A stretch of 64,000 nucleotides of DNA from an uncultured bacterium (GTDB lineage: Bacteria > Patescibacteriota > Minisyncoccia > Phycocordibacterales > PALSA-1337). Positions 8,811 through 52,346 of the stretch are shown here, piece by piece (position 1 is the stretch's first letter; each line of letters begins with the position of its first letter). Where the stretch lies: the NCBI GenBank assembly GCA_903872035.1, contig CAIQIZ010000028.1, forward strand, positions 24,038-88,037, read 5' to 3'. The notes beneath the pieces were generated by a model, which saw nothing but the letters and a program-made list of their open reading frames with translations, made no database searches and was not told the DNA's origin. The translations under genes and the position numbers were made by a program.

Positions 8811-8905
8811 TAATCCGCTATCCCGACAAGCGAGGAGCGTATAAATGCTCACATTTATAACGTCCGAGCGAAGTCGGGAAAGGAGCGAAGCGACTATCCA
8901 CAGTT
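8811..8905 (-). repeat. Degenerate copy of the family-2 gene-upstream module
   Basis: Shares CAAGCGAGGA, a central hairpin, CCGAGCGAAG and GAGCGAAGCGA boxes with the copies at 26392, 32028 and 52251. Confidence 0.35.
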
Positions 8906-9111: not shown

Positions 9112-9147
9112 TTGACTAGGATTCAATGCTAGCATGATTCATCTAAA

Positions 9148-17689: not shown

Positions 17690-17861
17690 AGGTGGTTTGG
17701 TTGAACGTAGTATATACCTGTTTATAGAATTGCAAACTTGTGGATGAACAAAAAATATGTTGATAAGGTGGGGACAATTGAAAGTTGACAGATTTTGACC
17801 GTTCACAAAGAAAAACTTTTTAACTTTTGACTTTATTGAGTTTATAAACTATAGTGTCCGC
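17690..17861. promoter_or_regulatory. Divergent dnaA/rpmH promoter region with a DnaA-box-like site
   Basis: TGTGGATGA at 17739-17747 (8 of 9), AT-rich. Confidence 0.35.
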
Positions 17862-18008: not shown

Positions 18009-18350
18009 ATGCTCCCTCGTTCACAGAGGCTCTCTGTCGCAGACTTCAATCAGGTGATGGAAAAAGGGAGGGTTACTCACTCCCCTCTTTTCTTGTTACG
18101 CTCCCTAAAGATCGATTCGCTTGGCCAAACCAGGATCGCTGCCGTCGCTCCGCAAAAGATCTTCAAGAAAGCTGTACAGCGTAATAAGTTGCGTAGGCAG
18201 ATGTATGAAGCGGCTCGGCCCCTGTATGCAGATGTGAAACCGCAATTGCGTGTAGTCATCTTTGCCAAAGCGGTAGCTATGACCACAGATCACGTAACTC
18301 TCAAAAAAGAAATCAAGGAAATCTTTGTCAAAGCCGGTCTTTTGAAGTAG
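18009..18350 (+). CDS. rnpA: RNase P protein component
   Basis: 113 aa, basic; follows rpmH as in the conserved rpmH-rnpA-yidC cluster. Confidence 0.8.
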   Translation: MLPRSQRLSVADFNQVMEKGRVTHSPLFLLRSLKIDSLGQTRIAAVAPQKIFKKAVQRNKLRRQMYEAARPLYADVKPQLRVVIFAKAVAMTTDHVTLKKEIKEIFVKAGLLK

Positions 18351-18363
18351 TATGTATAAGCTC

Positions 18364-18419
18364 GTAACACTTTGCCAGTTTGAAACTGGCCCACAGTTAT
18401 CAAACTAGCAAAGTGTTAC
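18364..18419 (-). repeat. Family-1 palindromic extragenic element, copy A (subfamily with AACTGTGGGCCAGTTT apex)
   Basis: 12-bp perfect arms GTAACACTTTGC / GCAAAGTGTTAC around a loop containing CTGGCCCACAG. Confidence 0.6.
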
Positions 18420-18434: not shown

Positions 18435-19199
18435 ATGTACAGCCAGTTCATCTTTCAACCTCTTTATAACGGCCTAGTCGGGATCATGGTTTTGATCCCA
18501 GGCATAGACGTAGGCATCGCAGTCATCATATTTACGATCATCATCCGGCTGATACTCTTTCCCCTGTCCAAGAGCGCCTTACTGACGCAGGTGCGAATGA
18601 AAGAGGTCGAACCAGATGCGGCTAAGATTCGCACACAGTATGCAGCTGACAAGCAGACGCAAGCTTTGAAAATAATGGAGCTTTACAAGGCCAGAAAAGT
18701 AAAACCTTTCTCGGGGATCCTATTGCTCATCATCCAACTGCCAATACTTCTAGCTCTTATCTCGGTCTTTTATAAAATCATCCCGACCATAGATACGCAC
18801 CTGCTTTACTCGTCGATCCTGAACGCATTCACGCATATGTCTGCGCCACGACCAACTCTCTTGGGCCTGGATCTGACGAGCAAGAATCTTGTCCTGGCTT
18901 TGATCACTGGTGCTGCACAGTTTTTCCAGCTCCATTTCTCGGTAGCAGCCAGACAGCAGAAAGAAATGGCTGCGAGCACTATTAAAAGCGGTGGTTCTTT
19001 GGACAAAGCGTCGCAACTATCGAACTCCATGAATTCGCAGATGAAGTTTCTTCTGCCGTTATTAGCCTTCGCCTCGATTTATTGGATTATTCCAGCCAGA
19101 TTCCCCCAGGCATCATCGATCATCGCAATATATTGGTCAGTTAGCGCCTTATTTACTCTAGGTCAGGAACTATATATCAAGAAGCGGCACCTGAAGTAG
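18435..19199 (+). CDS. yidC: Membrane protein insertase YidC (short form)
   Basis: 254 aa, multi-TM, KPFSGILLLIIQLPIL motif. Confidence 0.8.
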   Translation: MYSQFIFQPLYNGLVGIMVLIPGIDVGIAVIIFTIIIRLILFPLSKSALLTQVRMKEVEPDAAKIRTQYAADKQTQALKIMELYKARKVKPFSGILLLIIQLPILLALISVFYKIIPTIDTHLLYSSILNAFTHMSAPRPTLLGLDLTSKNLVLALITGAAQFFQLHFSVAARQQKEMAASTIKSGGSLDKASQLSNSMNSQMKFLLPLLAFASIYWIIPARFPQASSIIAIYWSVSALFTLGQELYIKKRHLK

Positions 19200-19219
19200 C
19201 ATATCAACCAGAAGACTCC

Positions 19220-19271
19220 GAAAATACTCCCGTTTGCCGCTGGCCCACAGCGCTCAAACAGGAGTATTTTC
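19220..19271 (-). repeat. Family-1 palindromic element, copy B
   Basis: 17-bp arms; the core, read on the minus strand, is GTTTGAGCGCTGTGGGCCAGCGGCAAAC, identical to copy F. Followed on the plus strand by TTTTCTTTG, so it may also terminate yidC. Confidence 0.7.
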
Positions 19272-19297
19272 TTTGTCTTCCAATCTTCGCTCAACTA

Positions 19298-20629
19298 TTA
19301 GTGTGAAGCGGAGAGATCATACGACCAGAAGCTTAGGTCGTTTTTGTTCATGAAGAATAGATAACCATCTTGGGGATCGAGTTTCAGGTTGAAAGCGTCG
19401 ATGACACGGTCGCTCTTGTCGACGATGGTAGAGACAAGGTTGATCTCACCGGTGCCTGCGTTCAACTTCCAGATCTTGTCGATCGTTGAAAGTGTTCCAG
19501 TATACCAATCGTCAGGATAGGTTCCGGAAACGGGTTGTGACGGCACGGCGCAGTAAACGCTATTCATATTGAGATTACCCCAAGCGCATTTGTCGGCCAA
19601 AGTACGGAATACGGCGCTGGAGAAGCTACCGGAAGAGACGGTATATATAGCGGTGTCGACGTTCTGATCATTGTTAGCCGAGGAGGCGAGCACGTAATGT
19701 GCGTCATGACTGGTTCTGGTGCTGAGGCCAGCGATCGGACCAAGGATCTTCTTCCAGATACCAGTCTTGGTGTTCACGAAGTACAAGTATCCCGGCTGAC
19801 CAGCAGAACCTTTGGTAGTAATGGCGATGGTATTGGTTTCCGTCCACTCGACGTTAACTTGAATAAGCGGGGTACTGAACAGTCTAGCCATGCTTGATCC
19901 ATCGAAATTCGAGATATATCCGACACCAGCACCGTTTTCATTGACGAGAGTGAACAACTTGTCTCCTTTTGGTGAGGCGGCGAAGGCTACGATATTATCT
20001 TGCAGGTTGTTGCCTTTCAATTGGAATGGAGTCGTTCCCACCGAGTTCTTGTTTGAGGCAGCTGCAGATGGGTCCTGGGCTTTAAGTTGGGCGTAAAGCG
20101 TGGTAGGTGTGTCGATCTTGCTGGAGAATATTGACCCGACGAAGGCGGTCAAATTCTTGTTCCAAACACTCTCATACATACGCGGAAGGATGGTATTGGA
20201 AAGAGTCGCGACTGTTTCCGAAGCGAGCGATAATTCGTAGACGTTTCCTCTTCCTCGGTCTATCCAACGGACTATCGTTGTTGAGGCGCTGGTGCTAGCC
20301 GAATATCCGCCTACTGGGGTTCCGCTTATCATGCGCAAAGTCGCGATCCTGACGGTTGATGGTTGAATAGAAACCGGAGTGTTGCTCAAGCTTGAAGGAG
20401 TCGAGCTTCCAGTTCGATTCGTTGAATTCGAATTGAGTGGAGCGAAACCGCTAACTGATTGTTGGCCCGGAGAGGTCAGAGCCACGGTCGGTTTCCCTGC
20501 CCCGTAGAAAAAGAAGTACCAATAGGCCAAGCCGGCGAGGACAAGGCAAGTGATGATCGCGATTGGAATTACAAGGGATTTGTTCATGGAAGGTTTACTT
20601 CTTGCAAGCTGGGTCATTGGGCGCGCCAA
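19298..20629 (-). CDS. Membrane-anchored hypothetical protein with a beta-rich (propeller-like) extracytoplasmic domain
   Basis: N-terminal TM helix; start may be the internal MNKSLV. Last gene of the minus-strand T4SS-like block. Confidence 0.45.
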   Translation of the reverse strand: MARPMTQLARSKPSMNKSLVIPIAIITCLVLAGLAYWYFFFYGAGKPTVALTSPGQQSVSGFAPLNSNSTNRTGSSTPSSLSNTPVSIQPSTVRIATLRMISGTPVGGYSASTSASTTIVRWIDRGRGNVYELSLASETVATLSNTILPRMYESVWNKNLTAFVGSIFSSKIDTPTTLYAQLKAQDPSAAASNKNSVGTTPFQLKGNNLQDNIVAFAASPKGDKLFTLVNENGAGVGYISNFDGSSMARLFSTPLIQVNVEWTETNTIAITTKGSAGQPGYLYFVNTKTGIWKKILGPIAGLSTRTSHDAHYVLASSANNDQNVDTAIYTVSSGSFSSAVFRTLADKCAWGNLNMNSVYCAVPSQPVSGTYPDDWYTGTLSTIDKIWKLNAGTGEINLVSTIVDKSDRVIDAFNLKLDPQDGYLFFMNKNDLSFWSYDLSASH

Positions 20630-21788
20630 AGTTTGGGTTGCACAGCTTGGCCATTGTAGTGGTAATACTGGCTTGCAGCTTAGCCTTATTTGGATCGTCA
20701 GCTGACATATTATTCAATATACCATTAATAACTTGTGAATTTACTTGTTTGATTCCATCGACAGGCGCATTTTGGAGTATGCTGTCTTGCAGCAGTAATT
20801 GACCATAATTATAATAGTAGGTGCTGTCTAGTTTCTTGATGTTATCTGGGGTATCGGCTCCAAGCAATTGAAGATTTTGGAGCCCTTCGTTATAGGCTTT
20901 ATTAACATTATCCTCATTGTTTCTTACGTCCTGCAATGTTTTTGTTTGAGTAACTGAGTCCCCCGATGAGTTAAAGTTGTTTGAGTTTCCCCCATTCATT
21001 TGAGCGCTTATTTCAGTTTGCGCAGTCAAGATAGTAGCTGCCGCCTGCGCATCTGCTATCTGGTTGGTGGTGTCTTGAATTTTGGCATTTACAGAAGCCA
21101 GACGTGGATCAGTGTCGCTAACGCCCTCAGAGTATAGTAATTCGTTTTGTTGGGCTTTTAAGCTCGTCAAATTTTGTTGAAGCGATGTTACTGTTGCCTT
21201 TTCTTGCGTCATTTGTTGTCCGTACTCGGAAGTTTGTGCATTATAGGCCTTTGCATCTTGAGTGAGTTGATCAAAAAAGTCTATTGTAACAGGTTGGGTT
21301 AGGTTAGGTTTCAATTGTGTTGACAATTGTGGTACCAATGTTGAAGGTATATTCACGAACGCTGGATTGATGGCGCCCAAGATTAGATATGAGCATAGTA
21401 CCAGAAGGAGGCCGATCAAGGCGTTCTGGACCTTTTTTATCCCGTCGCCCTTGCCTTGGAATGAGCCAGTGGTCATGTATTCAAGCCCGCCGTAAACGAT
21501 CATGAAGACCGCTGCCACAGCCGCTAAAGCGATGAGAAGATTCATGGCGTATAGAACGTACTGCTGAAACGATACGGTAGTTACGGTTGAACCTTGGGCA
21601 CAACCACCAGAAACCGATACTACACAAGGAAAAGGAGCAAGCAACTCATAATCTTTTGGCGCCATGGTGGCCGAATCGGCTGCCATCGTTTGGGGAGTCG
21701 CTGGAATTATCAGAATGCAGGTGGATAATATACAGCTGCACGCGGCGATGGCGATTACCTTTTTCAGTGATGAATATGAAAATCTCAT
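20595..21788 (-). CDS. VirB2/TrbC-like pilin domain fused to a long Q/N/T-rich coiled-coil tail
   Basis: Long signal peptide, then two hydrophobic helices separated by a short loop (LIALAAVAAVFMIVYGG...ALIGLLLVLCSYLILGA), typical of T4SS pilins. About 250 extra C-terminal residues. Confidence 0.4.
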   Translation of the reverse strand: MRFSYSSLKKVIAIAACSCILSTCILIIPATPQTMAADSATMAPKDYELLAPFPCVVSVSGGCAQGSTVTTVSFQQYVLYAMNLLIALAAVAAVFMIVYGGLEYMTTGSFQGKGDGIKKVQNALIGLLLVLCSYLILGAINPAFVNIPSTLVPQLSTQLKPNLTQPVTIDFFDQLTQDAKAYNAQTSEYGQQMTQEKATVTSLQQNLTSLKAQQNELLYSEGVSDTDPRLASVNAKIQDTTNQIADAQAAATILTAQTEISAQMNGGNSNNFNSSGDSVTQTKTLQDVRNNEDNVNKAYNEGLQNLQLLGADTPDNIKKLDSTYYYNYGQLLLQDSILQNAPVDGIKQVNSQVINGILNNMSADDPNKAKLQASITTTMAKLCNPNFGAPNDPACKK

Positions 21789-21792
21789 GGTA

Positions 21793-22836
21793 TTAATTGG
21801 TTATTGATGGCGCAGCATTTGAAGACGCTGCAGTGAACATGGCTGTAAAACCGGAATTGGCGCTCTGGAGGATCTGCTTATTGTTGGCGATACTCAAGGT
21901 GATATTAGAAGCTCCCGCTGTTCCTACGGGCGCACGCAAGATAACGGAATCATTTGTAGTCAATTCTGGATGCGCGACGTTGTTGATAAGCCAAGAAAAA
22001 GAAAGATCTCCAGATTTATTGGCCGGTTTATTGAAACCGTAAGGAATGGCTAGAATGTTGGCTTCCCTTTGCGAACCGATGCGATACGAAGAGTTGATAG
22101 CCAAGTTGAAGAGCGGACCATAGAGAGGATCGTTTATGTAAAAAGTGATCGAAGGCGATTGGGGGGTTATTGTGATCATGCTTTCAGCTTGGCCGGAGCC
22201 TGTGCGCGGTGTCACGTTCACGGACAGGTCATATGCTCGAGGGACTATATCCCCCACTAACATGATCGACTGTTTTCCATAACCAGACTGGTCTCCGAGG
22301 ATTTGGTTATTCTTGCTCCATTGGTAGATGAGAGTTTTTGGGTCGTATTCAACACCATCTGAATTGGCGATATGAGGAACAGCGACCACAGTAACGGAAT
22401 TTTGATAAACAACGGGCGCTTTTCCTCGGAAGGAAGGTGGCACGTAACCATCTGTTTCAGTTACTAGGTCGACCGAACCTGAACCGATCACGGTGCTTCC
22501 GGTGGTTGTTTGGCCATTATTCGTGACCATTGTGACTTTTATATTCAGTTTTTTACCGAGAGCTGGGGCGGTCACTGTGAGAGTCGTAAGACCGTTGCCG
22601 CTTTGAGCCACTTTACCATTGACCGACCAAGTAATCTTCGATGAATCGATACTGGCACTATAGCTCGCTGCTGTGATCGTTATTTGTTGTCCAGGTGCTG
22701 GATTTTCCGATGAAACCGAGAGGGTGACACCGCCGGATGAGGGAACACTTTGGGCGTGCGAGCAAGGAGCAAGAAGGAAGGAGCAAGAAGCGAGGAGGAC
22801 GCCGGCGGATACGATTGATAGAAAATGACGATTCAT
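21793..22836 (-). CDS. Secreted beta-rich hypothetical protein
   Basis: Signal peptide MNRHFLSIVSAGVLLASCSFLLAPCSHAQ, Thr/Ser-rich. Confidence 0.5.
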   Translation of the reverse strand: MNRHFLSIVSAGVLLASCSFLLAPCSHAQSVPSSGGVTLSVSSENPAPGQQITITAASYSASIDSSKITWSVNGKVAQSGNGLTTLTVTAPALGKKLNIKVTMVTNNGQTTTGSTVIGSGSVDLVTETDGYVPPSFRGKAPVVYQNSVTVVAVPHIANSDGVEYDPKTLIYQWSKNNQILGDQSGYGKQSIMLVGDIVPRAYDLSVNVTPRTGSGQAESMITITPQSPSITFYINDPLYGPLFNLAINSSYRIGSQREANILAIPYGFNKPANKSGDLSFSWLINNVAHPELTTNDSVILRAPVGTAGASNITLSIANNKQILQSANSGFTAMFTAASSNAAPSITN

Positions 22837-22897
22837 CAGTGTCTATTTTAACATGAATTAGTCGGATGGAATGAAGAGTTATCACCATTTGGAAACT

Positions 22898-23443
22898 TTA
22901 TGCAGAGAATGATGACTCGGCATTTTTTACCGATTTTCCAATCGTAGGTCCTGTTGCTTGTATATGGCCTCTAGGTCTTCCGACACCATCTACGTAGAAT
23001 CTAGAGGATTCGCTTGGTTGAAGCTGTTCGGTCCTAGCTCTACCCACACCATCCTCGACATATTTACGAGCCATTCCGGCCTGCAAAAATTCCTCCTGCT
23101 CCCGCTCAGCGTTCATTTGAGCCTCCTCTTTTTTTACATCGCTATGAATGTACCAGACATCCAAAATCCACAGCTGCGCTATTCCGCCGGTAACTGCGGA
23201 CAGCGCCTCCATACCAACTAAAGATGCTAATCGACTCGGGTGTTGGACGAGAGAGACCTTTTTTCCGAACTGGATCCACAGAGCAATGATGACACCGACG
23301 ATGGGATCCAAAATTTCATTTATTGCCACTCCAATACCAAAGACCCAGACGAGGATGCATTCGATGATGACGAACTGTATGAAGTCCATTCCGCCAGCAA
23401 AGAGATACAATAAAAACCAGCCTTTTGATTTGGGTTTTGCCAT
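22898..23443 (-). CDS. Small membrane protein with an internal YV(E/D)GVGR repeat
   Basis: Two TM helices followed by a charged tail. Confidence 0.45.
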   Translation of the reverse strand: MAKPKSKGWFLLYLFAGGMDFIQFVIIECILVWVFGIGVAINEILDPIVGVIIALWIQFGKKVSLVQHPSRLASLVGMEALSAVTGGIAQLWILDVWYIHSDVKKEEAQMNAEREQEEFLQAGMARKYVEDGVGRARTEQLQPSESSRFYVDGVGRPRGHIQATGPTIGKSVKNAESSFSA

Positions 23444-23473
23444 TGCGTTTCAATTATAACAGAAAGCATCCCC

Positions 23474-25288
23474 TTACTGCCCTGCTGCCTCGAGATCCTT
23501 CTTGGCTTTCTCGATCTGCATGACTTGAGCTGGATTTGTGGTGATGATCTGATCCTCTGTATAGGAGGCGACGATCTTGATGGCTACGTGTTTCAAGCCG
23601 ACGAAGAACATGCCTTCCCCGACATCTGATTCGAGCAACAAGTATTTCTCTTCGTCTGTTAAGTTGAATGTTTGCTGGATGTGATCGATTACGGTTGGCG
23701 ATTGTTTGAGCAGGATCTGAATTGAAGAGTTGGTAAGAATCGGCAAACCATAGGGAGATTTCAAGAAGTCATCCACGTCTTGGGTTATTGTCGCCAAGCC
23801 AAGGTAATATTTACGGCCACGTTTTGCCAATCCGAATAGGAATGAGGCCGTATCTTCGGATTTCATCATCCACCAAGCCTCATCGATGACTAGGAGCCTC
23901 TTCTTCCTGATCTTGCGCACGGCATTCCATATGAAGTGGGTGACTATATACATGGCTACCGGCTTGAGCTCGTCTTCCATGTCGCGGAGAGAGAAGACAA
24001 CGAACTTCTTGTTGATGTCCACGTTTGAAGGTCTGTTGATGAAGCCGGACCAGGTTCCTTTGGTGTACTTGGTCAATCTTTGTACTAATGATTCACCACC
24101 TTCCATTCCAGCTAGGACGAGCTCGAAGTCAGACAAAAGAGGCGGTTCGACTGTGCGAAAGTCGGATTCTGGAGATATATCCTTGAGCGCATATGTTTCG
24201 GTGATGGCACGATCGATGATAGCGTCCTCTTCTTGGGACAGGCCGCCCAACATGATACGGAAGAGGCCGACCAAGTTGATGATGTTAGATCGTAATACGT
24301 CCGCTGCCGATTCATCTTCGGCTGGTATAGGTAGATCGAATGGGTTGATATGGTGCTCAGAATTCAGAGAGATGTTGAAATACTTCCCTCCTGTAGCTTC
24401 CGACATGTATTCATATTCTTTTTCCGGATCGATGACGATCACATCGGTATCGAACATCAAAGTCCGAAGAATCTCCAGCTTTGTGCAGTATGATTTACCG
24501 GCACCAGCCACGGCGAACGTCACAGAATTGTAGTTTTCAAGAAGGTATCGGTCGAAAAGGACCAGCGATGAATTGTGGCGATTTATTCCATAAAGTATTC
24601 CTTTATCTGAAGTGAGGTCGAAAGAGACGAACGGGAATAGCGACGAGAGTGGCGAGGAGTTCAGCTTGGAATGTACCGCCAATTGGTCGTCGGCTATAGG
24701 AATGACTGATTTGAAGCCTTGTTCTTGTTGGAAAAGGGCTGGTTTGACGTAAACAAGTTTCGATTCAAGAATGGACTTGATCTCTGATTCCAACTTGTCG
24801 AGATCGCCATCAGAATCGGCAAAGATCGTAATATATACGCCAACGTCGAAGAGATGTTCTTGCGCTTGCATCAATTGGTCACGGAGCGCTTCCAGGTCCT
24901 GATATGCAGTGTCTAGGCCAGGATCGCGGACCAAACCCTTCTCTTCTCTCCTGGATATCTGGCTTTGCACCTCGGCCACTTTCTTTTGGAAGTGTCGGAG
25001 AATCTTGGCTGTTTCGACTGGGTGGATGAAAATAGAGACATTGAAGACTTTATCTAGGTTGATGATAGGTGCGAACCAGCTTTCATCGAGGAAACGCGGG
25101 TAAGAAATGACAAATAGAGTGCGGCCGACCTTCTCGCCAAGATTCAATTCCTTCGGGCTAACTTTCAAGGCTGATGGTGCGATGACGTCCTTCAGCTCCA
25201 ATACGCCCGCTTGGTAGATCTCATTAGGAAGCACCGAAACGATGGGGGCTTCTGTTTTTTTGCCGAAGAGTTTGTTAAATATAGACAT
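23474..25288 (-). CDS. VirB4/TrbE/CagE-family type IV secretion ATPase
   Basis: 604 aa; Walker A VAGAGKS, Walker B VIDEAWWMM, overall VirB4 architecture. Confidence 0.8.
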   Translation of the reverse strand: MSIFNKLFGKKTEAPIVSVLPNEIYQAGVLELKDVIAPSALKVSPKELNLGEKVGRTLFVISYPRFLDESWFAPIINLDKVFNVSIFIHPVETAKILRHFQKKVAEVQSQISRREEKGLVRDPGLDTAYQDLEALRDQLMQAQEHLFDVGVYITIFADSDGDLDKLESEIKSILESKLVYVKPALFQQEQGFKSVIPIADDQLAVHSKLNSSPLSSLFPFVSFDLTSDKGILYGINRHNSSLVLFDRYLLENYNSVTFAVAGAGKSYCTKLEILRTLMFDTDVIVIDPEKEYEYMSEATGGKYFNISLNSEHHINPFDLPIPAEDESAADVLRSNIINLVGLFRIMLGGLSQEEDAIIDRAITETYALKDISPESDFRTVEPPLLSDFELVLAGMEGGESLVQRLTKYTKGTWSGFINRPSNVDINKKFVVFSLRDMEDELKPVAMYIVTHFIWNAVRKIRKKRLLVIDEAWWMMKSEDTASFLFGLAKRGRKYYLGLATITQDVDDFLKSPYGLPILTNSSIQILLKQSPTVIDHIQQTFNLTDEEKYLLLESDVGEGMFFVGLKHVAIKIVASYTEDQIITTNPAQVMQIEKAKKDLEAAGQ

Positions 25289-25292
25289 ATGT

Positions 25293-25985
25293 TTATGTGA
25301 TCTGGATAGGCTTCTCTGTTTCTCCCGGATTGAATAGCTTGTAATACAATTCGACCACTTCTTCTGTTCCCAATTCTGCAGCCCTGATGCCGCAGCGGAC
25401 CAAGCCTTGTTCGACTACCGATACCCTCTGCTCGAGTTGGCTACGGTATTCTTGGAATTGAGCATCGGCTGTTTCAGTTTGATTCTTTCCTTGATTTTTT
25501 CCTGGTAAGAATTTTGTCAGAGGATTGTTGCTGGCACTTATCATCGCCGGATCGTACGGAATGACCACAAAGAAGCTCTTGGACATGATATTGGTGCTTT
25601 CCACGAATGTCTTGATGAATTCGATATATTCGCGCACCTGGATCTTCATAAGCTCGGTTAACTGTTCCTTGTAGCGATCTTCCAGAAGAGCAATATACGG
25701 CCGTATGTCTAGCTTTTTTGACTGGATGAATATTTGGATGGAAAAATCTAGAGAGTTCACGAAATTCTGGAATTGCATGAGAATGGAACTCTGCTCATCC
25801 TGCGATTTCAAGGCAAAGTTGAGCGATGAAGCCAGGATGATGGAGCGCATGCCCCCATTTCTCAAGATGACCACGCCGTCGCGGATCTCCTGGATAGGCA
25901 CGAAGTTTTGGGTGGTTTGTGATTTGACGTTTTTTGCCATAGGAATTATCGCTGATTTACCGCTGATTCTTATTCGAATAGACAC
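25293..25985 (-). CDS. VirB4 N-terminal-domain-like protein, translationally coupled to VirB4
   Basis: Stop TAA, then ACAT, then the VirB4 ATG (4-nt gap). Core pattern PIQEIRDGVVILRNGG...FQNFVNSLDFSIQIFIQSKKLD resembles the non-ATPase N-domain of VirB4-family proteins. Confidence 0.4.
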   Translation of the reverse strand: MSIRIRISGKSAIIPMAKNVKSQTTQNFVPIQEIRDGVVILRNGGMRSIILASSLNFALKSQDEQSSILMQFQNFVNSLDFSIQIFIQSKKLDIRPYIALLEDRYKEQLTELMKIQVREYIEFIKTFVESTNIMSKSFFVVIPYDPAMISASNNPLTKFLPGKNQGKNQTETADAQFQEYRSQLEQRVSVVEQGLVRCGIRAAELGTEEVVELYYKLFNPGETEKPIQIT

Positions 25986-26391
25986 TCTCTTTGATATCCA
26001 AGCTCCAGGTCAGGTCTTTGAGCTTGCTGTCAGAGATCTTTGGAACCATGATAGAAGCGTAGCTCTTGACCTCATCGCCGGTCACTTCGGCTGATTTTTC
26101 TGGTATCTTCTCCTCTTTCTTCCATATATATAGCTTGTTCCCCCACCAATATTTGAATGCTGCCTCCATGACATTGACAAAGGGTTTGTTGTTGATTTTG
26201 TAGAAGGCTAAAGCAGCCGATAGCGCCATGATGGCGACGATGGGAATGAACGATAAGATGATGCTTTTCAAGAATACGTAGACTACGAAAGACAATCCTC
26301 CCCCGCCGACCAAGTATATGAATTGCTTCAAAGTGAGCGGTCCGAAGATCTTGTCTTCTACTTCGATGAATTGAGGTACTTGAAAACGCAT
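25957..26391 (-). CDS. PrgI/VirB3-like small T4SS membrane protein
   Basis: N-terminus MRFQVPQFIEVEDKIFGPLTLKQFIYL followed by two TM helices, matching the PrgI family pattern. Confidence 0.5.
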   Translation of the reverse strand: MRFQVPQFIEVEDKIFGPLTLKQFIYLVGGGGLSFVVYVFLKSIILSFIPIVAIMALSAALAFYKINNKPFVNVMEAAFKYWWGNKLYIWKKEEKIPEKSAEVTGDEVKSYASIMVPKISDSKLKDLTWSLDIKESVYSNKNQR

Positions 26392-26483
26392 TATGGCCTA
26401 ATTATAGCGTCAAGCGAGGATTTGTGGAAGCGAGCCTCCACAAAATACGAGCGGAGACGATATATGAGTGGAGCGAATATAGC
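26392..26483 (-). promoter_or_regulatory. Family-2 gene-upstream module: tandem-repeat box, hairpin, -10 TATAAT; promoter of the prgI-virB4 operon
   Basis: On the minus strand TATAAT lies 9 nt before the ATG at 26391. The conserved distal box is GCTATATTCGCTCCACTCATATATCGTCTCCGCTCG. The element fills the entire 92-nt intergenic gap. Confidence 0.5.
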
Positions 26484-27302
26484 TTAGCTGATCGATTCTT
26501 TGTATGGATCACCTGGTTTTGGATTGCTGACATCGATTTTCTTCGGAGTTTGTGGTGTTGGTGGTGGGACTGGCTTCGGTACGACAGGTTGTGGAGCGGC
26601 TGGAACTGGTGTGGTCGCATTTGGTATCGCTGCTATTGAAGGTTGGGAATCTTTTGGTACGGTAAGCGGAAGAGTGCCTTTTTGGTTAATCGGCGTTTGT
26701 GATTCTTCAATTTTCGGTGGATTTTCCAGGATGGACGGGCACGTTGTCGGGTCCTCTACGCCAGCCAATATCTTTGCTCTGTCTGCGACAGTAATCCCGC
26801 TACTGCTTTCCAATATGCTGCTCGGCCTATCGATGCTGAAATCGCCAGCTGTTTCTACAGATGACATGGTCGATTCAGCATGATCGTTTTCCAAAGGTTG
26901 CTCTAGAGCAGCGATGTCTTGCTGTCCAGTGTCGTTCGTTTGTTCGTCGATCGCTCGTGCAGCATCTTCAGATTTTTTAGATTTCTCCTCTATCTCTCGC
27001 ATCTGGGTCTTTATTGTCGAAAACACCTGACTATTTATATCAGTTGCGATCATTTGAGAAAGTTTTGCGTCGATGGATAGCCGATCAGAAAGGTCACTTA
27101 CAAATGTGGATGCTTTGGCGAAACCCAGTATCACTAGAACGACTTGATCGACAAGATCACCAACCTGATCGATCATCAGTTCATATTTTTTTCCAATGGC
27201 CTGGATCGTGTTCAGAACTTCTTGCGATGAAATTGCTTTCTGCAGTTCCTTCGGCAGTTTCTCGAATTGGGCCTGGATTTGTTCGGTGGTGTAGTCTTTC
27301 AT
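26484..27302 (-). CDS. Hypothetical protein with Pro-rich C-terminus
   Basis: 272 aa, within the T4SS-like block. Confidence 0.45.
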   Translation of the reverse strand: MKDYTTEQIQAQFEKLPKELQKAISSQEVLNTIQAIGKKYELMIDQVGDLVDQVVLVILGFAKASTFVSDLSDRLSIDAKLSQMIATDINSQVFSTIKTQMREIEEKSKKSEDAARAIDEQTNDTGQQDIAALEQPLENDHAESTMSSVETAGDFSIDRPSSILESSSGITVADRAKILAGVEDPTTCPSILENPPKIEESQTPINQKGTLPLTVPKDSQPSIAAIPNATTPVPAAPQPVVPKPVPPPTPQTPKKIDVSNPKPGDPYKESIS

Positions 27303-27313
27303 GTCATTGATTG

Positions 27314-29305
27314 TTATTTCTTTGGCGCATCTTTCGGTGTATCCTTGGGTGCTGCTGACGCTTCAGACTTCGTCTCTCTTGCAACAGCCTTCGCCATTCC
27401 GTCAATTCGTTCCTTCTCGGCCTCTTCTTCCCCAGCATCGATATCTTTTTGTAGTCGTACTTGTTCTTTCTCAAGACGCTCAACATCTGCTAATTCCTCA
27501 GGGCTAGCCGGAATTCCCGGTTTAAAACCAATAGGTTTCCCCTTTGCCACAATCTTAGCTTTGAGTTCTTTAAGTTCATCATCCACTCTCGTTTTCTCAC
27601 GTTTGTTAGCTGCCAGGTCTGACTTCGCTTTTTTATCTCGAACTACCTTGTCCAATTTTGCTGCTGTTTGCCGATTTGCTCTGTTATCGATAGCGAAACC
27701 TATTGCACCACCAAGGTATAGATTACCCGGGCTAGCCTTCCAAGGAAGACTTTCACGATATTTCGCCTGATATGCTTTGGCTTTATCCTTAGCTACTCCA
27801 AAGGCCTTATCTCCTTCGGGGCCTTGGGCGAAATCACCACGGTCGACTTTATCCAACCTATCATGCATTCCTTCCTCGGCTTTTTTCTTTGCTGCTAAGC
27901 GAGCTTCGTATCCACCCGCTTTACCCCCACCGAAGCCGCCTGTGCTGACCTTAGACAGACCAGAAGAAGCTAAACCGCCGATGCCGGGCAAACGGCTTGC
28001 CAGGAATTTCATCGGAGCGCTTTCGTTCGCTCTGTAAGCCGCACGTCCGAGAGTTCGAGCACCAGCCTGGCTTCCGACACCCTTCCAAATATTTGCCGCG
28101 CTGAACTTCTTCATGGTTTTATCCATCCATCCAGTCGCAGATCCGCCCATCTTGAGGCCGACGATGAGAGGAAGGTTGAGCATGACTATGACCATGGCAA
28201 AATTGATGGCTAACACCATATAACTGAAAGTCCAATTGGTACCGGCTGGCAAGCTTGAAATATTGGAACTAGCCGCGCCCATGATGTTGCTTTCGTTGAG
28301 GACTTTCAAGGCTGCATACATAAGCAAAAGATACACGGGCATAAAGACTAATTGGGCCTCTAGTTGTGTCTTGAATTCTTTCATTTTGTCTGCTATTTGC
28401 GGGATGATCATACCGGCAAACCATATAGGTGAGAAGGCCAACAGAAATAGCAGGATAACCAATCTTGCGATGAATGCCGCCGCAGCCAAGAGAAAGCTGA
28501 AAGCGGCTGTTATCATTATGACAATGCCGACTATACCGACGACGATGATTGTGAAGGAATCTCCAAGTTTAGTTCCGATCCCGTTAGTCTTGGTATTAAA
28601 ATTGGTTTGGATCTTCAGGCTGTTCATGAAGATTTGAGAGATGCCATTTCCCGCGCTGACATTTGAGGTGCTTTGGGTCATTCCGGTTGCTGTCGCCAAA
28701 TCGGCTACGGTCGTCTTATCAGTCATGGTGATAGATGTTGGTACCATGGAGTTGAAAATAGCCAAAGAGACGACATTTGAAGCATCGATGAGGACGCTGA
28801 CTATGAAGAAACTGAAGTTGATCAGTATACCAGCGGTGACGATGGAGACTATCACTTTGCCATAATTGTTTCCAAGACCAAGGATGATTTGGAAGGCCGC
28901 GTATAGAAGGAAAAATATGAAGAATATGCCGGTCACGTCGCGGATAGTCTGCCAAATGGCGTAAATGGCGGGTGTGGCACTGACGAAGTCTTTGATGTGC
29001 ATGGTTATAACTATGGAAACGTTCAATATACCTCCGGCGAATGTGAGCATTATGCCCATAGCGTCTAAAGCAGTATTAACAATGTTTGATAGTACAGTAT
29101 TTATGCATTTCGTCGGATGAAGGACGTCACTCACGCTACATCCAGTTTGGCCACCGCCCGAACCTGGGTCAGGAGTGCTTGTTGGTGATGGAGACGCAGT
29201 TACAGACGGCGTTGGAGTCTGTGCGTTTACAGGAACTGCAAACAAAGAAAACACCGTAAGGACGAGGAAGAGTATCGGGATGATTTGTTTGAAATGCGAT
29301 TTCAT
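27314..29305 (-). CDS. Polytopic membrane protein, possibly VirB6/TrbL-like, with a charged C-terminal tail
   Basis: Signal peptide, six or more TM helices, then a Lys/Glu-rich hydrophilic C-terminus. Confidence 0.4.
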   Translation of the reverse strand: MKSHFKQIIPILFLVLTVFSLFAVPVNAQTPTPSVTASPSPTSTPDPGSGGGQTGCSVSDVLHPTKCINTVLSNIVNTALDAMGIMLTFAGGILNVSIVITMHIKDFVSATPAIYAIWQTIRDVTGIFFIFFLLYAAFQIILGLGNNYGKVIVSIVTAGILINFSFFIVSVLIDASNVVSLAIFNSMVPTSITMTDKTTVADLATATGMTQSTSNVSAGNGISQIFMNSLKIQTNFNTKTNGIGTKLGDSFTIIVVGIVGIVIMITAAFSFLLAAAAFIARLVILLFLLAFSPIWFAGMIIPQIADKMKEFKTQLEAQLVFMPVYLLLMYAALKVLNESNIMGAASSNISSLPAGTNWTFSYMVLAINFAMVIVMLNLPLIVGLKMGGSATGWMDKTMKKFSAANIWKGVGSQAGARTLGRAAYRANESAPMKFLASRLPGIGGLASSGLSKVSTGGFGGGKAGGYEARLAAKKKAEEGMHDRLDKVDRGDFAQGPEGDKAFGVAKDKAKAYQAKYRESLPWKASPGNLYLGGAIGFAIDNRANRQTAAKLDKVVRDKKAKSDLAANKREKTRVDDELKELKAKIVAKGKPIGFKPGIPASPEELADVERLEKEQVRLQKDIDAGEEEAEKERIDGMAKAVARETKSEASAAPKDTPKDAPKK

Positions 29306-29311
29306 AGAATA

Positions 29312-31072
29312 TTATGGGGCGGCTGTCGGCGTGGCCGTTCCACTGGTGCAAAGGGCTTGGTATGGCGCCAGAGTCGTCTGAAGCGTGGTGGCTGTTTGGG
29401 TGGCGGTAGTGAGATATGTTTGGGCAACTTGCGGATCTAGAACAGCCGTAGTTGACTGGGCTATGAGGTTGTTCAAACTATTTTGTTGGTCGGTCAACTG
29501 TTGGGCTGTTGTGGCGCTTTGCATCTGTGACACAGCGCTTTGGATGGCTAGCAAGACAGATTGCGTGCTGTTATAAGCGCTTTGATATTGGTTGACTGCT
29601 GGAGTCACAGTGATGGAGATGACGTTATTCAAAGCAGTGAGGCTCGTTTGCAGACTTGCCGCTGCTCCGGAAGCGCTGGCTCGCGTCTGTAGACAGGCTG
29701 AAGCCGCTGCATAAGCAGTTTGTTGTTGTTTTATGAGTGTGAGTGCCGAATTCAAAGTCGTCACTGATTGTTGGACTGATGCGACCGCAGTATTGATCGG
29801 AGCAACGGTCTGCTGTTTGAGATTGGTGAAGTTTGTTTGAAGTGCTGGGTCGCTGTTTGCGTATTGGTTGATGAATGATTGGGATGCTGCGTTGCTTCCA
29901 GAGCTTGAATTGCTAGAAGTTGTTTTCGTCAAAGACAACAATCCACCACCATTAGAGAGGACCTGATTGAAGAGCTGATTTGTCAAAGCGGTGGCTATCT
30001 CGTTTATATCGTGGGTCATGTTCAAAGTATCGGTTTGGGCACCGAGCTGTTTGTTGAGTGCGGCGGAAATGACTGAACCTGGCGTCTCGACGTGGCAGAC
30101 TTTGGTGGTTGCGGTGCTTCCAGAAGATGTTTGAACGTTGTCGCATTTTTGCCATGACAAGAATCCATTTCCCCTGTTCAGGTCATTATTGATCGCGTTC
30201 TGTTTTTTCTGTATCTGCACATCCAGGTCGCTCTTTGCTTGTAGGGCAGCCCCGAAAGCATTGTTTTGTGGCTCGGACACTAGAGCCATGAAAGCTGGCC
30301 AGCCACCTTGACGGAAATCGCCTCCCATGAAGCCGTCGACGCTGGCACCATTAATGCTTATATCGTTAGGGTTGTTCAGGACATTTCCTGACATTATATC
30401 TCCTAGATTTGTGCCATTCGAACTTCCCTTAACTGAGACGGAAACATTGCCGCTTTGTTTGGCTGTCTGTATCACCTTGCTCAAGGTACATGTATATCGT
30501 TGATTTAAGGTCGATGTTTGTCCCAATGCTAGCGAGAGACGAAGGTCGATATTGAATGGAGAACAGAGTGATTTACCTAACGGACCGAGGTCGCTGATGA
30601 ATGCCCCGGTAACTTGGTCGGCGGCATCCATGAAGAAACCTTCAGGATTCTTTAAGAACGCCGGTTCTCCTTTGAAGCCGGTATTGATCCAAGTTACTAC
30701 GCTATTCGTAAGTTGGTGCAGTATCACCTGGGCAGCTTGCCAGGCCAGGCCTTTCCATGTGCAGACGTCATCCTTCACGGCCGTAGTATTTGATCTAACC
30801 GTTGCGTCGGAAACAGGCACCGCATTCCCACCAATGATGCTCCCTACGCTACCGCTTCCACCACTGCCGCCACCGATACCTACTGCGCTTCCTATGCCAC
30901 TTAAAATCGATCCCATGTTACAAGCGATCAGTCCCGCCCCCACTCCCCCGACCGCTCCTGCTATTTGTGCCTGTGCTGTTGCGGGAAGATATACTGCCGA
31001 GGTCATGAATAGAATCGAAGTAACGAATGCTAGGCAGATCCCATTTTTGATTATGTTGTTCTTGATTGTCAT
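29312..31072 (-). CDS. Secreted Gly-rich then Q/T/S-rich protein
   Basis: Signal peptide; low-complexity repeats. Confidence 0.45.
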   Translation of the reverse strand: MTIKNNIIKNGICLAFVTSILFMTSAVYLPATAQAQIAGAVGGVGAGLIACNMGSILSGIGSAVGIGGGSGGSGSVGSIIGGNAVPVSDATVRSNTTAVKDDVCTWKGLAWQAAQVILHQLTNSVVTWINTGFKGEPAFLKNPEGFFMDAADQVTGAFISDLGPLGKSLCSPFNIDLRLSLALGQTSTLNQRYTCTLSKVIQTAKQSGNVSVSVKGSSNGTNLGDIMSGNVLNNPNDISINGASVDGFMGGDFRQGGWPAFMALVSEPQNNAFGAALQAKSDLDVQIQKKQNAINNDLNRGNGFLSWQKCDNVQTSSGSTATTKVCHVETPGSVISAALNKQLGAQTDTLNMTHDINEIATALTNQLFNQVLSNGGGLLSLTKTTSSNSSSGSNAASQSFINQYANSDPALQTNFTNLKQQTVAPINTAVASVQQSVTTLNSALTLIKQQQTAYAAASACLQTRASASGAAASLQTSLTALNNVISITVTPAVNQYQSAYNSTQSVLLAIQSAVSQMQSATTAQQLTDQQNSLNNLIAQSTTAVLDPQVAQTYLTTATQTATTLQTTLAPYQALCTSGTATPTAAP

Positions 31073-31078
31073 AGTGAT

Positions 31079-31945
31079 TTATCGGACTAGCGCATTCAAA
31101 GCGTTCTGATTGATCATGAATGGAACCCCCTCGCCCTCCAGTACAGCGTTCATATCTTGTAGGCCGGTGATGATCTGTTGGGCCCCGGTCACGTGCATAG
31201 ACATACCGGATAGGCCGCTTACGGAGTCAGTGTCAAAGCCGCGAAAATCTACAGCTGCGGATTTCATCGTGCTCAGGGCGTTCACAAGTTCTAGATATTG
31301 GGATGAAATGATCTCGGGTGTAGGGATAGCAAGAAGTGAAGAGATCATCCTCTTGTATGCAGCGATGATCGGGTCGATATTTTTGAGTACGGATGGATCA
31401 TTCTTGGAAATATATGATTGGACGATTGAAGATTGGCTAGTTCTTATATTATATGAATCGAGGACCGTGGTGACTGCCTGGCTGAAGGTTAGTAGCGTAT
31501 TTTTATCGTTTGCGGCGATCGTATGCAAATCACCGACAACATATAATTTTGTTGGATTTGTATTGATATGCTCAGCCGCAATATTTGCTGTCGTTTGGTC
31601 TATAGCGTCCTGATCATTCACCAAATCTGCTTGTTTCAGTCCGATATAGCTGGTAAAGAAATCTCTCGCTAAGTTATCAGTTGCTGTAAGCTTCTCTTTT
31701 GTGATGGCGGAATCGCTGTTCGGAGGTGTCTTAACTGTCCCCTCGAACTGTTTCTTCCAGTCACCATTGTCGGTGCTAGTATTTGGTTGCAAATCTGTCA
31801 CCACAGCAGCCGAGTTGTTGTTGCCAGCGCCATTTATTTGGCCAGCGTTTGCGTTTAACGAGGCGTAATGGGTTGTTCCCCAGACGGCCAAAACGCAAAC
31901 CACGAATATTATTACCGTCTGCTTACGCGGGTAGAAAATCGCCAT
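31079..31945 (-). CDS. N-terminally membrane-anchored hypothetical protein; first gene of the minus-strand block
   Basis: Single N-terminal TM helix. Tandem TATACT TATACT directly before the ATG. Confidence 0.45.
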   Translation of the reverse strand: MAIFYPRKQTVIIFVVCVLAVWGTTHYASLNANAGQINGAGNNNSAAVVTDLQPNTSTDNGDWKKQFEGTVKTPPNSDSAITKEKLTATDNLARDFFTSYIGLKQADLVNDQDAIDQTTANIAAEHINTNPTKLYVVGDLHTIAANDKNTLLTFSQAVTTVLDSYNIRTSQSSIVQSYISKNDPSVLKNIDPIIAAYKRMISSLLAIPTPEIISSQYLELVNALSTMKSAAVDFRGFDTDSVSGLSGMSMHVTGAQQIITGLQDMNAVLEGEGVPFMINQNALNALVR

Positions 31946-32027
31946 AGTATAAGTATACCAGCGTGAGGCTTTAAAATCTTATAAATTTGGGGATAATGAT
32001 ATTAGATCAGGAGTAATCCGAATGCGT

Positions 32028-32113
32028 GATATATTCGCTTCGCTCATATATCGTCTTCGCTCGAATCTCAAAAATGCGAGCATTTACGAGATTCTCGCTA
32101 GCCGCTATAATTA
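32028..32113 (+). promoter_or_regulatory. Family-2 gene-upstream module in plus orientation; promoter of the 32120 gene
   Basis: GATATATTCGCTTCGCTCATATATCGTCTTCGCTCG box, a hairpin of different sequence, -35 TTTACG at 32083-32088, 17-nt spacer, -10 TATAAT at 32106-32111, and the ATG 8 nt later. Confidence 0.5.
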
Positions 32114-32119
32114 CTTCAC

Positions 32120-33226
32120 ATGACTAAGTCGATCTTATTGTCTATTGTTGCAGTCTCTTGTCTCTTGGTTGGCATAGCGAGCGTTTCTGCGAGTACGACC
32201 TTCCGTCGGAATCTCTCCATCGGTGCTCAGGGTCCAGATGTCAGAGAATTACAAGTTATTCTCAATAAAGACCCACTGACAGCGGTTTCCTCAACCGGTT
32301 CTGGGTCGCCAGGCTTGGAAACTGCATATTTTGGGGTCAAAACTGCCAAAGCCGTGGCTAGATTTCAAGAGAAATATGCCAAGGACATTCTCACACCGAA
32401 CAATTTGACGTCGGGAACCGGATTTGTTGGCTTAAAAACAAGGGAAAAGCTGGAAAGTTTGATAAATTTGAGTATTTCTTCTTCGAATACTCCTCAGGTG
32501 AGTGTTGTCCCCGCCGTTTCGCCAGCAAGCACAGCGGTGAGTCCTGTGGTAATTCCTTCTGTGCCCATTCCAGGCATAAATACGGCCGGTTCTTTGAGTA
32601 GTGCAGATATTCAGAAATATCTGTCCCGTGGCGTTATTCCCCAAAGTCTTGCATTTGACCGAGTTTTTCCGAATGACCTTATGATTTTTGGGCTTTCTCA
32701 TAATAAGGCCAAACCCGGCGATCAATTGCAGGTCACTGGCGGCGGTTTTGCGAATACCATGATATTTCACCTTGGTCCGGCGAATAGTGTCAATGTTCAG
32801 GCAACTACTGCCGATCAATTCTCGATTACGGTGCCGAATATTTCATTCGGACAATACAAGGTTTGGCTTACGGATGCGACCAGAACTACCGAAAACGCGA
32901 CCCCACTCTTTCTCACTATCGGAAATATTACTGACGATCGCCCCCTCATCGCTTCCGTGTCACCTATACAAGCCGATAGAAATAGCCAGATTGTCGTAAC
33001 TGCCGACTCGCTCGACACCACTGGCAATACGGTTTACTCGAATATTGGTATAATCAGATCAGTCAGCTCGCCTGATGGCCATAGTCTGACATTCAAAGTA
33101 AGTGATTTGCCCAATGCTGCAGTATTCTTCAGTGATACGAATATAAATCAGTTCACAGTTACGTTCAGCATCGGAACATCCAAAGGAAAGAGCTTAAATT
33201 ACGGATATTTTCATTTAACGAAATAA
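32120..33226 (+). CDS. Secreted protein with N-terminal PG_binding_1-like domain and Ig-like repeats
   Basis: Signal peptide; motif AVARFQEKYAKDILTPNNLTSGTGFVGLKTREKL. Confidence 0.55.
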   Translation: MTKSILLSIVAVSCLLVGIASVSASTTFRRNLSIGAQGPDVRELQVILNKDPLTAVSSTGSGSPGLETAYFGVKTAKAVARFQEKYAKDILTPNNLTSGTGFVGLKTREKLESLINLSISSSNTPQVSVVPAVSPASTAVSPVVIPSVPIPGINTAGSLSSADIQKYLSRGVIPQSLAFDRVFPNDLMIFGLSHNKAKPGDQLQVTGGGFANTMIFHLGPANSVNVQATTADQFSITVPNISFGQYKVWLTDATRTTENATPLFLTIGNITDDRPLIASVSPIQADRNSQIVVTADSLDTTGNTVYSNIGIIRSVSSPDGHSLTFKVSDLPNAAVFFSDTNINQFTVTFSIGTSKGKSLNYGYFHLTK

Positions 33227-36594: not shown

Positions 36595-36698
36595 GGAGGT
36601 ATCTTACAGGAAGAATGATGAATGAGGAATGATCGGCGGTGCAGTAAAAGTTCCTACTACGTCGTTTGGCTCTAGGAGATTATGTTTTAGAAGGCGAA

Positions 36699-52250: not shown

Positions 52251-52334
52251 TAGTATAGCGGCAAGCGAGGATTTGTGGAAGCTTGCTTCCACAAGATCCG
52301 AGCGCAGACGACGTATGAGCGAAGCGATTATAGC
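52251..52334 (-). promoter_or_regulatory. Family-2 gene-upstream module upstream of the metallophosphoesterase gene
   Basis: Shares both conserved boxes and the ATTTGTGGAAGC hairpin arm with the copy at 26392. The -10 is TATACT, 44 nt before the ATG. Confidence 0.5.
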
Positions 52335-52346
52335 AAAAATGCCAAC

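Follow-up and report, generated by a model that had tools for sequence, protein, structure and literature searches.

Stable stem-loops near the 5' ends of mRNAs are known from the E. coli ompA leader and from the 5' stabilisers of B. subtilis, and leaderless sigma-70 promoters are known from Actinobacteria, Deinococcus and the lambda PRM-cI unit. Putative mobile promoters have been defined as sequences of 50-100 nt with at least 80% identity that lie upstream of non-homologous genes (Matus-Garcia et al. 2012, PMC3488235). Almost nothing is known of how transcription and translation start in the Candidate Phyla Radiation (CPR)/Patescibacteria, ultra-small bacteria that make up a large share of bacterial diversity. 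The stretch studied here, 64,000 nt of contig CAIQIZ010000028.1 from an uncultured member of this group, carries four copies of a conserved module of ~90 nt upstream of genes; 'the window' below means this whole stretch at its full length. The explanation that we favour, with a probability of roughly 0.5, is that the module is a Patescibacteria-wide cassette of two promoters and a hairpin, which would give two mRNA isoforms. The promoter class itself is ordinary, and what is new is the conservation of the module across classes and the enclosure of a promoter in a hairpin whose pairing is maintained by compensatory changes.

A pattern search for the distal box of the module gave four matches in the window, as compared with 0.00 expected from 100 dinucleotide shuffles. 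A covariance model (R1), built on 24 modules, likewise gave precisely four matches (E 7e-21 to 8e-17), and with its filters off no further match below E = 3 was returned from the window, i.e. no degenerate extra copies. Both searches place the copies where the first-pass annotation of this DNA had put them (26392-26483, 32028-32113, 52251-52334 and 8811-8905), and the three-part layout described there, consisting of a distal box, a hairpin and a proximal CTCGCTTGnCGC followed by TATAAT or TATACT, is present. However, that description was incomplete, as the true start of the module lies a few bases more 5', at a conserved TGnTATAwT, and both the second promoter-like -10 at this 5' end and the phylum-wide conservation had been overlooked. 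The copy at 8811-8905, which had been called degenerate, has lost its proximal -10 but is a genuine member of the family (76.9 bits). Mean column identity is 69% for the alignment of the four copies over ~95 nt, and copies A and C share 85% identity across 81 nt. Three more contigs from the same population carry an identical sequence, with no strain-level polymorphism among them. The parts of each copy are as follows, with minimum free energy (MFE) and z score given for the hairpin and with predicted distal starts placed 6 nt downstream of the distal -10, as in the family profile.

Copy A, whole module: 26392..26483, minus strand; R1 91.9 bits, E 1.7e-20.
Copy A, distal -10 TATATT: 26476..26481, minus strand; predicted start A26469.
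Copy A, hairpin 5' arm (P1-5' TATATCGTC, J1/2 TCCGCTC, P2-5' GTATTTTGTGGAGG): 26435..26464, minus strand; MFE -19.7 kcal/mol, z -2.75.
Copy A, hairpin 3' arm, which is the promoter body (P2-3' CTTCCACAAATCC, J2/1 TCGCTT, P1-3' GACGCTATA): 26403..26430, minus strand.
Copy A, -35 TCCACA with a 16-nt spacer: 26423..26428, minus strand; 10/12 consensus matches.
Copy A, proximal -10 TATAAT: 26401..26406, minus strand; ATG at 26389-26391, 9 nt on.
Copy B, whole module: 32027..32119, plus strand; R1 88.1 bits; upstream of the gene for a 368-aa PG_binding_1 protein (32120-33226).
Copy B, distal -10 TATATT, preceded by TGa: 32030..32035, plus strand; predicted start G32042.
Copy B, 5' arm (TATATCGTC, TTCGCTC, GAATCTCAAAAATG): 32047..32076, plus strand; MFE -16.0 kcal/mol, z -1.94.
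Copy B, 3' arm (CATTTACGAGATTC, TCGCTA, GCCGCTATA): 32081..32109, plus strand; holds the -35-like TTACGA at 32084-32089.
Copy B, proximal -10 TATAAT: 32106..32111, plus strand; ATG at 32120, 8 nt on.
Copy C, whole module: 52252..52335, minus strand; R1 93.5 bits; upstream of a metallophosphoesterase gene (51497-52207).
Copy C, distal -10 TATAAT, preceded by TGc: 52327..52332, minus strand; predicted start G52320.
Copy C, 5' arm (TACGTCGTC, TGCGCTC, GGATCTTGTGGAAG): 52286..52315, minus strand; MFE -24.3 kcal/mol, z -3.11.
Copy C, 3' arm (CTTCCACAAATCC, TCGCTT, GCCGCTATA): 52254..52281, minus strand.
Copy C, -35 TCCACA: 52274-52279, minus strand; -10 TATACT: 52252-52257, minus strand.
Copy D, variant module: 8811..8903, minus strand; R1 76.9 bits; upstream of a 628-aa open reading frame (ORF) at 6763-8649.
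Copy D, distal -10 GATAGT: 8893..8898, minus strand; predicted start G8886.
Copy D, 5' arm (TCCCGAC, TTCGCTC, GGACGTTATAAATG): 8852..8879, minus strand; MFE -27.6 kcal/mol, z -3.88.
Copy D, 3' arm (CATTTATACGCTCC, TCGCTT, GTCGGGA): 8821..8847, minus strand.

Copy A occupies the whole gap from the stop codon of the ORF at 26484-27302 to the ATG of prgI (25957-26391). The spacing of 8-9 nt between -10 and ATG that had been reported for two copies is found in copies A and B, the ATG of copy C is 44 nt from the proximal -10, and that of copy D is ~170 nt from the site at which the proximal -10 has been lost (GGGATAGCGG); the hairpin of copy D is retained via the compensatory changes TCCCGAC / GTCGGGA. 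As judged by Pfam, the labels earlier given to the downstream genes hold for PrgI, for the TraG/VirB4-type P-loop ATPase, whose gene lies two genes beyond prgI, and for the metallophosphoesterase (Metallophos). That of PG_binding_1 for the 368-aa protein is marginal (22.9 bits, with a cutoff of 23), and the label 'PG-binding' is unsupported for the 628-aa protein downstream of copy D, which had zero Pfam hits.

Outside the window, the module was found at about 50 further loci, all in Patescibacteria (L-numbers below denote the loci or stretches returned by genome and metagenome scans). An exact search for the distal box, covering a single genome for each GTDB species, returned 43 stretches, 20 with the complete module and 23 with the 29-mer only, and all 20 complete modules were in metagenome-assembled genomes (MAGs) of Patescibacteria. 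The hosts are five Saccharibacteria assemblies, Taylorbacteria, Minisyncoccia, Parcubacteria, 'Patescibacteria group' and two more small genomes. Among metagenomes, a search with ATCCTCRCTTGnCGCTATAAT, the proximal box, by which alone this sample was chosen, returned 53 loci, of which ~33 have the full module, ~8 the core with the upper hairpin and ~12 the 30-nt core alone. Modules are ~90% identical between classes whose remaining non-coding DNA cannot be aligned. Two viral scans yielded just one chance hit and one lone core, and a phage origin was rejected. At the gathering threshold, Rfam identified only tRNAs in the window, and a search of a module-bearing locus at E<=1 returned nothing relevant. 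Searches of the literature, both for the topic and for the sequence strings, returned no description of the motif or of the promoter-in-hairpin design. A match to the 29-nt pattern of the distal box is also found in abundant palindromic repeats of unrelated phyla (GTCATTYCGAGCGnAGTCGAG ... TCGCTTCGCTC-N6-CGACTnCGCTCGAAATGAC), namely in Salinibacter/Salinivenus (L007, L010, L020, L025, L033, L040), Bacteroidales (L009, L016), Flavobacterium (L041) and Clostridia (L037). These repeats are identical to the CPR box at about 26/32 positions, which may reflect shared origin or chance among CGCT-rich repeats.

The proximal ~30 bp have the consensus CTTyCAC-AAATCC-TCRCTTG-nCGC-TATAAT (TyCACA-16-TATAAT). 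A consensus promoter scan found TCCACA, 16 nt and TATAAT with 10/12 matches, and other copies carry TTCACA, TTTACA or TTGTCA. The -10 follows TAnnnT, with A2 and T6 invariant, and reads TATAAT, TATACT or TATAGT in three window copies and in all canonical modules. Of the 57 modules for which an ORF could be called, 51 have their TATAAT 6-10 nt ahead of the ATG (6 nt in 30, 7 nt in 8, 8 nt in 6, 9 nt in 5 and 10 nt in 2), transcription being expected to start about 7 nt after a -10, and the base preceding the ATG is mostly a pyrimidine. Shine-Dalgarno (SD) motifs are nearly absent at gene starts in the window, operon-internal genes included, which is consistent with the report that about half of Parcubacteria lack the anti-SD motif (PMC9297842). 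About 25 of 57 window genes have TAnnnT 5-9 nt ahead of the start codon, often with G or TG before the hexamer, and leaderless initiation thus appears, from the sequence, to be usual in this organism. The proximal 30 bp are very likely a near-consensus sigma-70-type promoter that would give a leaderless mRNA; the leaderless transcripts already proposed for this DNA are thus very probable, given the -10/ATG spacing and the near-absence of SD sites. At the ~12 metagenomic loci that have the core without any distal half, the ATG is still 6-9 nt away. As the core occurs alone or with the upper hairpin only, it is a self-sufficient unit to which the distal half is an add-on. Orthologous genes differ in state, being preceded by full, partial or core-only versions (secD at L061, L081 and L062; corA at L024 vs L072).

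The distal half of the module pairs with this promoter. RNAalifold and manual reading agree on a fold of three helices, ~65 nt in total. In P1, TATA-t-CGnC pairs with GnCG-c-TATA and takes in four bases of the proximal -10; in P2, GGATT..GTG.AAG pairs with CTT.CAC..AATCC and takes in the -35; a middle helix of 2 bp falls inside the second TCGCTC 'half-site'. Hence the hairpin of about 30 nt that had been regarded as a separate part is the top of a larger fold, whose 3' arm is the promoter. In 24 sequences, 94.5% of the cells are paired, as compared with 34-49% when the partner is slid, 11 pairs are changed on both sides and 0/500 shuffles reach the observed value. For alignment A3, which has 52 distinct rows after removal of two duplicates from 54 matches, the corresponding figures are 93.4%, 34-49%, 13 and 0/500. 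The 'N' pair of P1 occurs as U-A (18), A-U (13) and C-G (9). For the middle helix, the register G38-C139 was rejected, showing no covariation, and the register 40-139/41-138 covaries.

Compensation is also seen between individual modules. In the radC modules of two Saccharibacteria (L013, L036), P1 and P2 both differ and are compensated, as are the differences between the prgI modules of the window and L049, and one genome (CAZHHB01) has six modules with six different P2 stems. In copy D and the related L038 and L023, where the proximal -10 is gone, P1 persists through new complements (TCCCGAC/GTCGGGA, TTCCGAC/GTCGGAA). Insertions of 20-50 nt are confined to predicted loops and junctions; they take the form of ~50 extra nt or an 18-bp longer stem at the P2 loop (L048, L089, L049), and of a 27-nt mini-hairpin that recurs in J1/2 or the 5' tail (L071, L075, L095, L053). 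All four window copies fold as predicted (-16 to -28 kcal/mol, z -1.9 to -3.9). A general habit of this genome to place promoters in hairpins was rejected, as 19 other leaderless promoters in the window have no such fold. A single-strand fold is probably the selected feature. A small ORF on the reverse strand (ATGAGCGAAGCGAATATAGC...) was rejected because its conservation ends after 7 codons, as was an intrinsic terminator, there being no U-tract and 0 terminator-like sites in 26200-26700, and the stem being followed by AAT-N6-ATG. The 27-nt mini-hairpin, CCCAGTAGGCGATTTTRCTAAATCGTC, occurs at two different CG^CTC sites (5' box or J1/2) in modules of different metagenomes (L053:1402-1487, L071:51-174, L075:3695-3813, L095:501-618), and represents either a very small mobile insertion or an additional, optional stem.

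The first-pass annotation had interpreted the distal box as two direct repeats of TCGCTC-like half-sites bound by a regulator in tandem. The second of these (GCGCTCG) pairs and covaries, at the J1/2-J2/1 junction, with the proximal CTCGCTTG (C-G 27, U-A 13, C.A 8, U.G 1), which speaks against a tandem half-site. A duplex promoter with an upstream operator, at which a regulator of a regulon would bind the tandem boxes or perhaps the palindrome, is unlikely. The sequence of the palindrome is free to vary while pairing is kept, which a dimeric DNA binder would not tolerate, stem and loop lengths vary by 4 to ~50 nt, and the distance between box and promoter, which the 27-nt insertions alter, varies by up to ~50 nt. 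Nevertheless, an operator would account for a near-invariant unpaired segment, TCGCTTCGCTCA, that two promoters and a hairpin leave unexplained. The spacer AAATCCTCRCTTGnCGC is conserved even in core-only promoters, suggesting contact with a protein, and the lineage-specific forms of J1/2 (TTCGCTC in the window and Taylorbacteria vs TGCGCTC in Saccharibacteria) are compatible with co-evolution with a factor. The downstream genes, which are unrelated in function, count against an operator, and the co-regulated set of surface and secretion genes that had been suggested for the window is not supported. In other genomes, the same module precedes genes for SecD, adenylate kinase (Adk), type IV pilin, D-Ala-D-Ala ligase (Ddl), RNase HII, transketolase (Tkt), RadC, G6PD (zwf), FtsH and UvrB, and, by eye, PBP1A, CorA, a P-type ATPase and more pilins. 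The association of the module with prgI is conserved between the window and L049.

The 5' end of the module is predicted to be a second promoter of the extended -10 type (TGnTATAwT). The profile of its hexamer in 52 distinct modules is T47 A50 T49 A51 [T38 A7 G4 C1] T49, and this is a -10 signature, since only position 5 varies. A G is present at -14 in 37/51, and the hexamer is followed by six bases, CGCTTC, then C/T, then G/A. The gap of 6 nt between the distal -10 and the predicted start matches the TATAAT-N6-ATG geometry of the proximal promoter, and the form TGnTAnnnT is that of the generic promoters of the window. The helix begins 5 nt past the predicted start, a spacing that is invariant in the 52 distinct rows of A3, and TCGCTTCGCTCA is the box around this start. 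At L031, L032 and L057, the distal -10 belongs to a complete second 30-nt core directly 5' of the module. The resulting order of core, anti-core and core (L031:6405-6527, L032:1395-1515, L057:3660-3782), in which the second core is perfect, resembles a micro tandem-inversion duplication and hints at a route by which the module originated.

A bidirectional promoter was also considered and rejected. On the reverse strand, the -10 is TATATG or ATATAT. Divergent neighbours carry separate -10 boxes, outside the module and 6-9 nt ahead of the respective ATGs, and the mix of upstream-gene orientations is alike in the full (23:13) and core-only (18:6) forms. Just upstream of modules in a Saccharibacteria MAG lies a long, near-perfect palindrome with GGAACCTTGCAAGGTTCC (L002:5830-5985, minus strand, also L032:1300-1345), which gave spurious miRNA-precursor hits in Rfam.

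With these parts, the cassette would work as follows. At the proximal promoter, RNA polymerase would start on the A of the ATG or a few bases before it, giving a leaderless mRNA. At the distal promoter, it would start at the conserved pyrimidine-purine step precisely 6 nt past the -10. From 5 nt past this start, the sequence complements the proximal promoter imperfectly. An RNA made from this start, or by upstream read-through, would therefore fold into the ~65-nt stem-loop (P1, the 2-bp middle helix and P2). Its 3' arm, the promoter in RNA form, would end 8-11 nt ahead of the AUG. Two isoforms would result, the leaderless mRNA and a leadered mRNA capped at its 5' end by a stable hairpin. By analogy with the 5'-terminal stem-loops of other bacteria, the hairpin would tune the stability and/or translation of the leadered isoform, and such control is its likely role. 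The firing of both promoters, the action of the fold as sense RNA and the role of the fold are what we infer here, and the second of these is put forward tentatively.

Several observations weigh against this explanation. Exceptions to pairing on the sense strand are of the G.U type in 8 cases and of the A.C type in 25, G.U pairs in the MFE structures number 27 for the sense and 42 for the antisense strand, and the antisense strand is the more stable in 44/52 modules with RNA parameters and in 52/52 with DNA parameters. Such scarcity of G.U is unlike the usual outcome of selection on a sense RNA. Constant mismatches between two pyrimidines, which on the opposite strand are between two purines, account for part of the strand bias, and another part probably stems from a promoter arm frozen by promoter function; core-only promoters prefer CTCACTTG, which yields C.A. 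In addition, the strong conservation of TCGCTTCGCTCA is not accounted for by two promoters and a hairpin, and the benefit of a hairpin-capped leader without an SD site is conjecture. Finally, about 8 of the 53 metagenomic loci keep the upper hairpin without the distal -10 and box, and about 12 lack the whole distal half, so that the add-on is dispensable.

The strand bias also bears on the possibility that the fold acts as DNA. In a hairpin promoter of the Frpo type, both arms would rebuild a duplex -35 and -10 on ssDNA, allowing transcription or priming from it after DNA uptake or transfer or at replication forks, and a cruciform that modulates the promoter would be a related form. Folding is better for the template (antisense) strand in all 52 modules with DNA parameters, and the excess of A.C-type over G.U-type exceptions on the sense strand points the same way. 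Paired segments take in the -35, the greater part of the spacer and four of the -10 bases, predicted folds on both strands put the -35 and TATA in helices, and mismatches affect the spacer and the downstream edge of the -10, as in the described Frpo layout (PMC11541004). Patescibacteria are, moreover, naturally competent (PMC10633639). However, the pseudo-non-template -10 on the template-strand hairpin reads TATATG, without the critical last T, and the modules are dispersed chromosome-wide before housekeeping genes rather than placed in a leading region beside oriT. Orientation follows the gene and not the fork: around the oriC in the window two copies are co-directional and two head-on, and a dependence on the replication strand was rejected on the same count. 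From nearest-neighbour energetics, ~10 mismatches per arm would make extrusion of a cruciform energetically prohibitive. This possibility is quite unlikely. Its most far-reaching form, in which the promoter is active as a hairpin and is a chromosomal, phylum-wide analogue of the Frpo/N4 type used on single-stranded or strongly unwound DNA, is highly improbable; such use might follow DNA uptake or type-IV transfer, or occur at forks, with a short primer-like RNA made across TCGCTTCGCTCA. If true, it would mean that structure-dependent transcription initiation is built into dozens of housekeeping promoters of Patescibacteria.

The occurrence of one module before unrelated genes could also be due to propagation, the module being a 'mobile' promoter or an element similar to a miniature inverted-repeat transposable element (MITE), with a palindrome that is functionless in itself and is kept symmetric by quasi-palindrome template-switch correction. 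The operational definition of a mobile promoter covers copies A and C, which share 85% identity over 81 nt before prgI and a metallophosphoesterase gene. The full, partial and core-only versions before orthologues (secD, corA) and the second core directly 5' of the module at L031, L032 and L057 are compatible with propagation, and scarce G.U intermediates would be expected if copying restores pairs. On the other hand, no transposase, unit-enclosing terminal repeats or clear target duplication were found, the copies within one genome are not near-identical and have compensated differences, and the distance to the ATG is fixed within a few bases, unlike that expected of random insertion. The conservation of the non-palindromic junctions and the 5' box across classes indicates that they are under selection. 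A MITE-like or Correia-like element was rejected on the position of the 5' box outside the inverted repeat, the within-genome divergence, and the gene-sense orientation of all copies at a fixed distance. Propagation alone is, on balance, an unlikely explanation, which if correct would still represent, as far as found, an undescribed reuse of a regulatory sequence across classes in reduced genomes.

Finally, the fold could serve as an intercistronic processing site of the RNase III type, or as a 3'-end stabiliser, on read-through RNA, parting the upstream message from the leaderless downstream one. Its two helices around an asymmetric internal loop are reminiscent of the RNase III sites of phage T7. 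A co-directional gene precedes 23/36 full modules, often with its stop codon 0-30 nt away, and copy A abuts a stop codon. Against this, 13/36 full modules are in divergent intergenic regions with no upstream gene reading in, core-only promoters are split alike by orientation (18 vs 6), and there is no U-tract or terminator signature. A processing site is rather improbable, and two promoters with a hairpin remain the explanation that we favour.

The window spans the chromosomal oriC, as indicated by the change in sign of the GC skew at 16-20 kb and by the following genes, rpmH being a further gene of this region.

15011-16117, minus strand: dnaN.
16340-17806, minus strand: dnaA.
18009-18350, plus strand: rnpA.
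18435-19199, plus strand: yidC.

The PrgI/TraC-like/VirB4-like cluster (19298-31945, minus strand) directly adjoins oriC and is head-on to replication. A second repeat family consists of palindromes with the core GTTTGAGCGCTGTGGGCCAGCGGCAAAC, located mostly just past the 3' ends of genes and terminator-like in appearance (18378-18405, 19211-19283, 36687-36759, 39758-39785, 46922-46947 and 63406-63474), with up to 73 nt at 81-84% identity. A 34-nt direct repeat is present at 8778-8811, adjoining copy D, and at 10305-10338, and pairs of intergenic inverted repeats are found at 8953-8977 / 9091-9115 (25 nt) and 56374-56406 / 56471-56503 (33 nt).

The module provides a concrete promoter consensus for leaderless genes, and, being conserved across classes, it offers the new genetic systems of Saccharibacteria a strong promoter that is ready for use. 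The compensated promoter-in-hairpin points to a layer of control for which a description was not found, either a choice between leaderless and hairpin-capped isoforms or a structure-dependent promoter.

Like the 5' stabilisers, the module has a stable hairpin within about 5 nt of the RNA 5' end, which in the module is a predicted end. It differs in that the stem of a 5' stabiliser is not a promoter, is followed by an SD site and does not belong to a repeated cassette. Correia and REP-REPIN repeats (for REPINs, PMC8049555) are, like the module, short intergenic palindromes; they can act as promoters, and their transcripts can fold. They are distinguished by hundreds of near-identical copies in either orientation, a variable distance from genes, and a RAYT transposase or TA target duplication, and none of these features was seen in the module.

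The Frpo and ssi ssDNA promoters of conjugative plasmids have a stem-loop that pairs -35 and -10 sequences, with mismatches between (Masai & Arai 1997; PMC11541004). Frpo is longer and is located on the transferred strand in plasmid leading regions, whereas the module is ~65 nt, chromosomal, situated before housekeeping genes and oriented independently of replication, and the strand that would need to act has a defective -10 (TATATG). With the putative mobile promoters (PMC3488235), the module shares the reuse of one upstream sequence before unrelated genes, within and between genomes. However, that class is purely operational, and the module has an anatomy of two promoters and a hairpin and shows compensatory evolution, with no mobilisation event observed. 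The proximal promoter is closest to the leaderless sigma-70 promoters, with which it shares a TATAAT-type -10 located 6-10 nt before the start codon, a pyrimidine-purine start step, the lack of an SD site and a -35-like hexamer at 16-18 nt. It differs from these in that the whole 17-nt spacer is conserved across classes and, in most copies, the promoter also forms one arm of a conserved hairpin.

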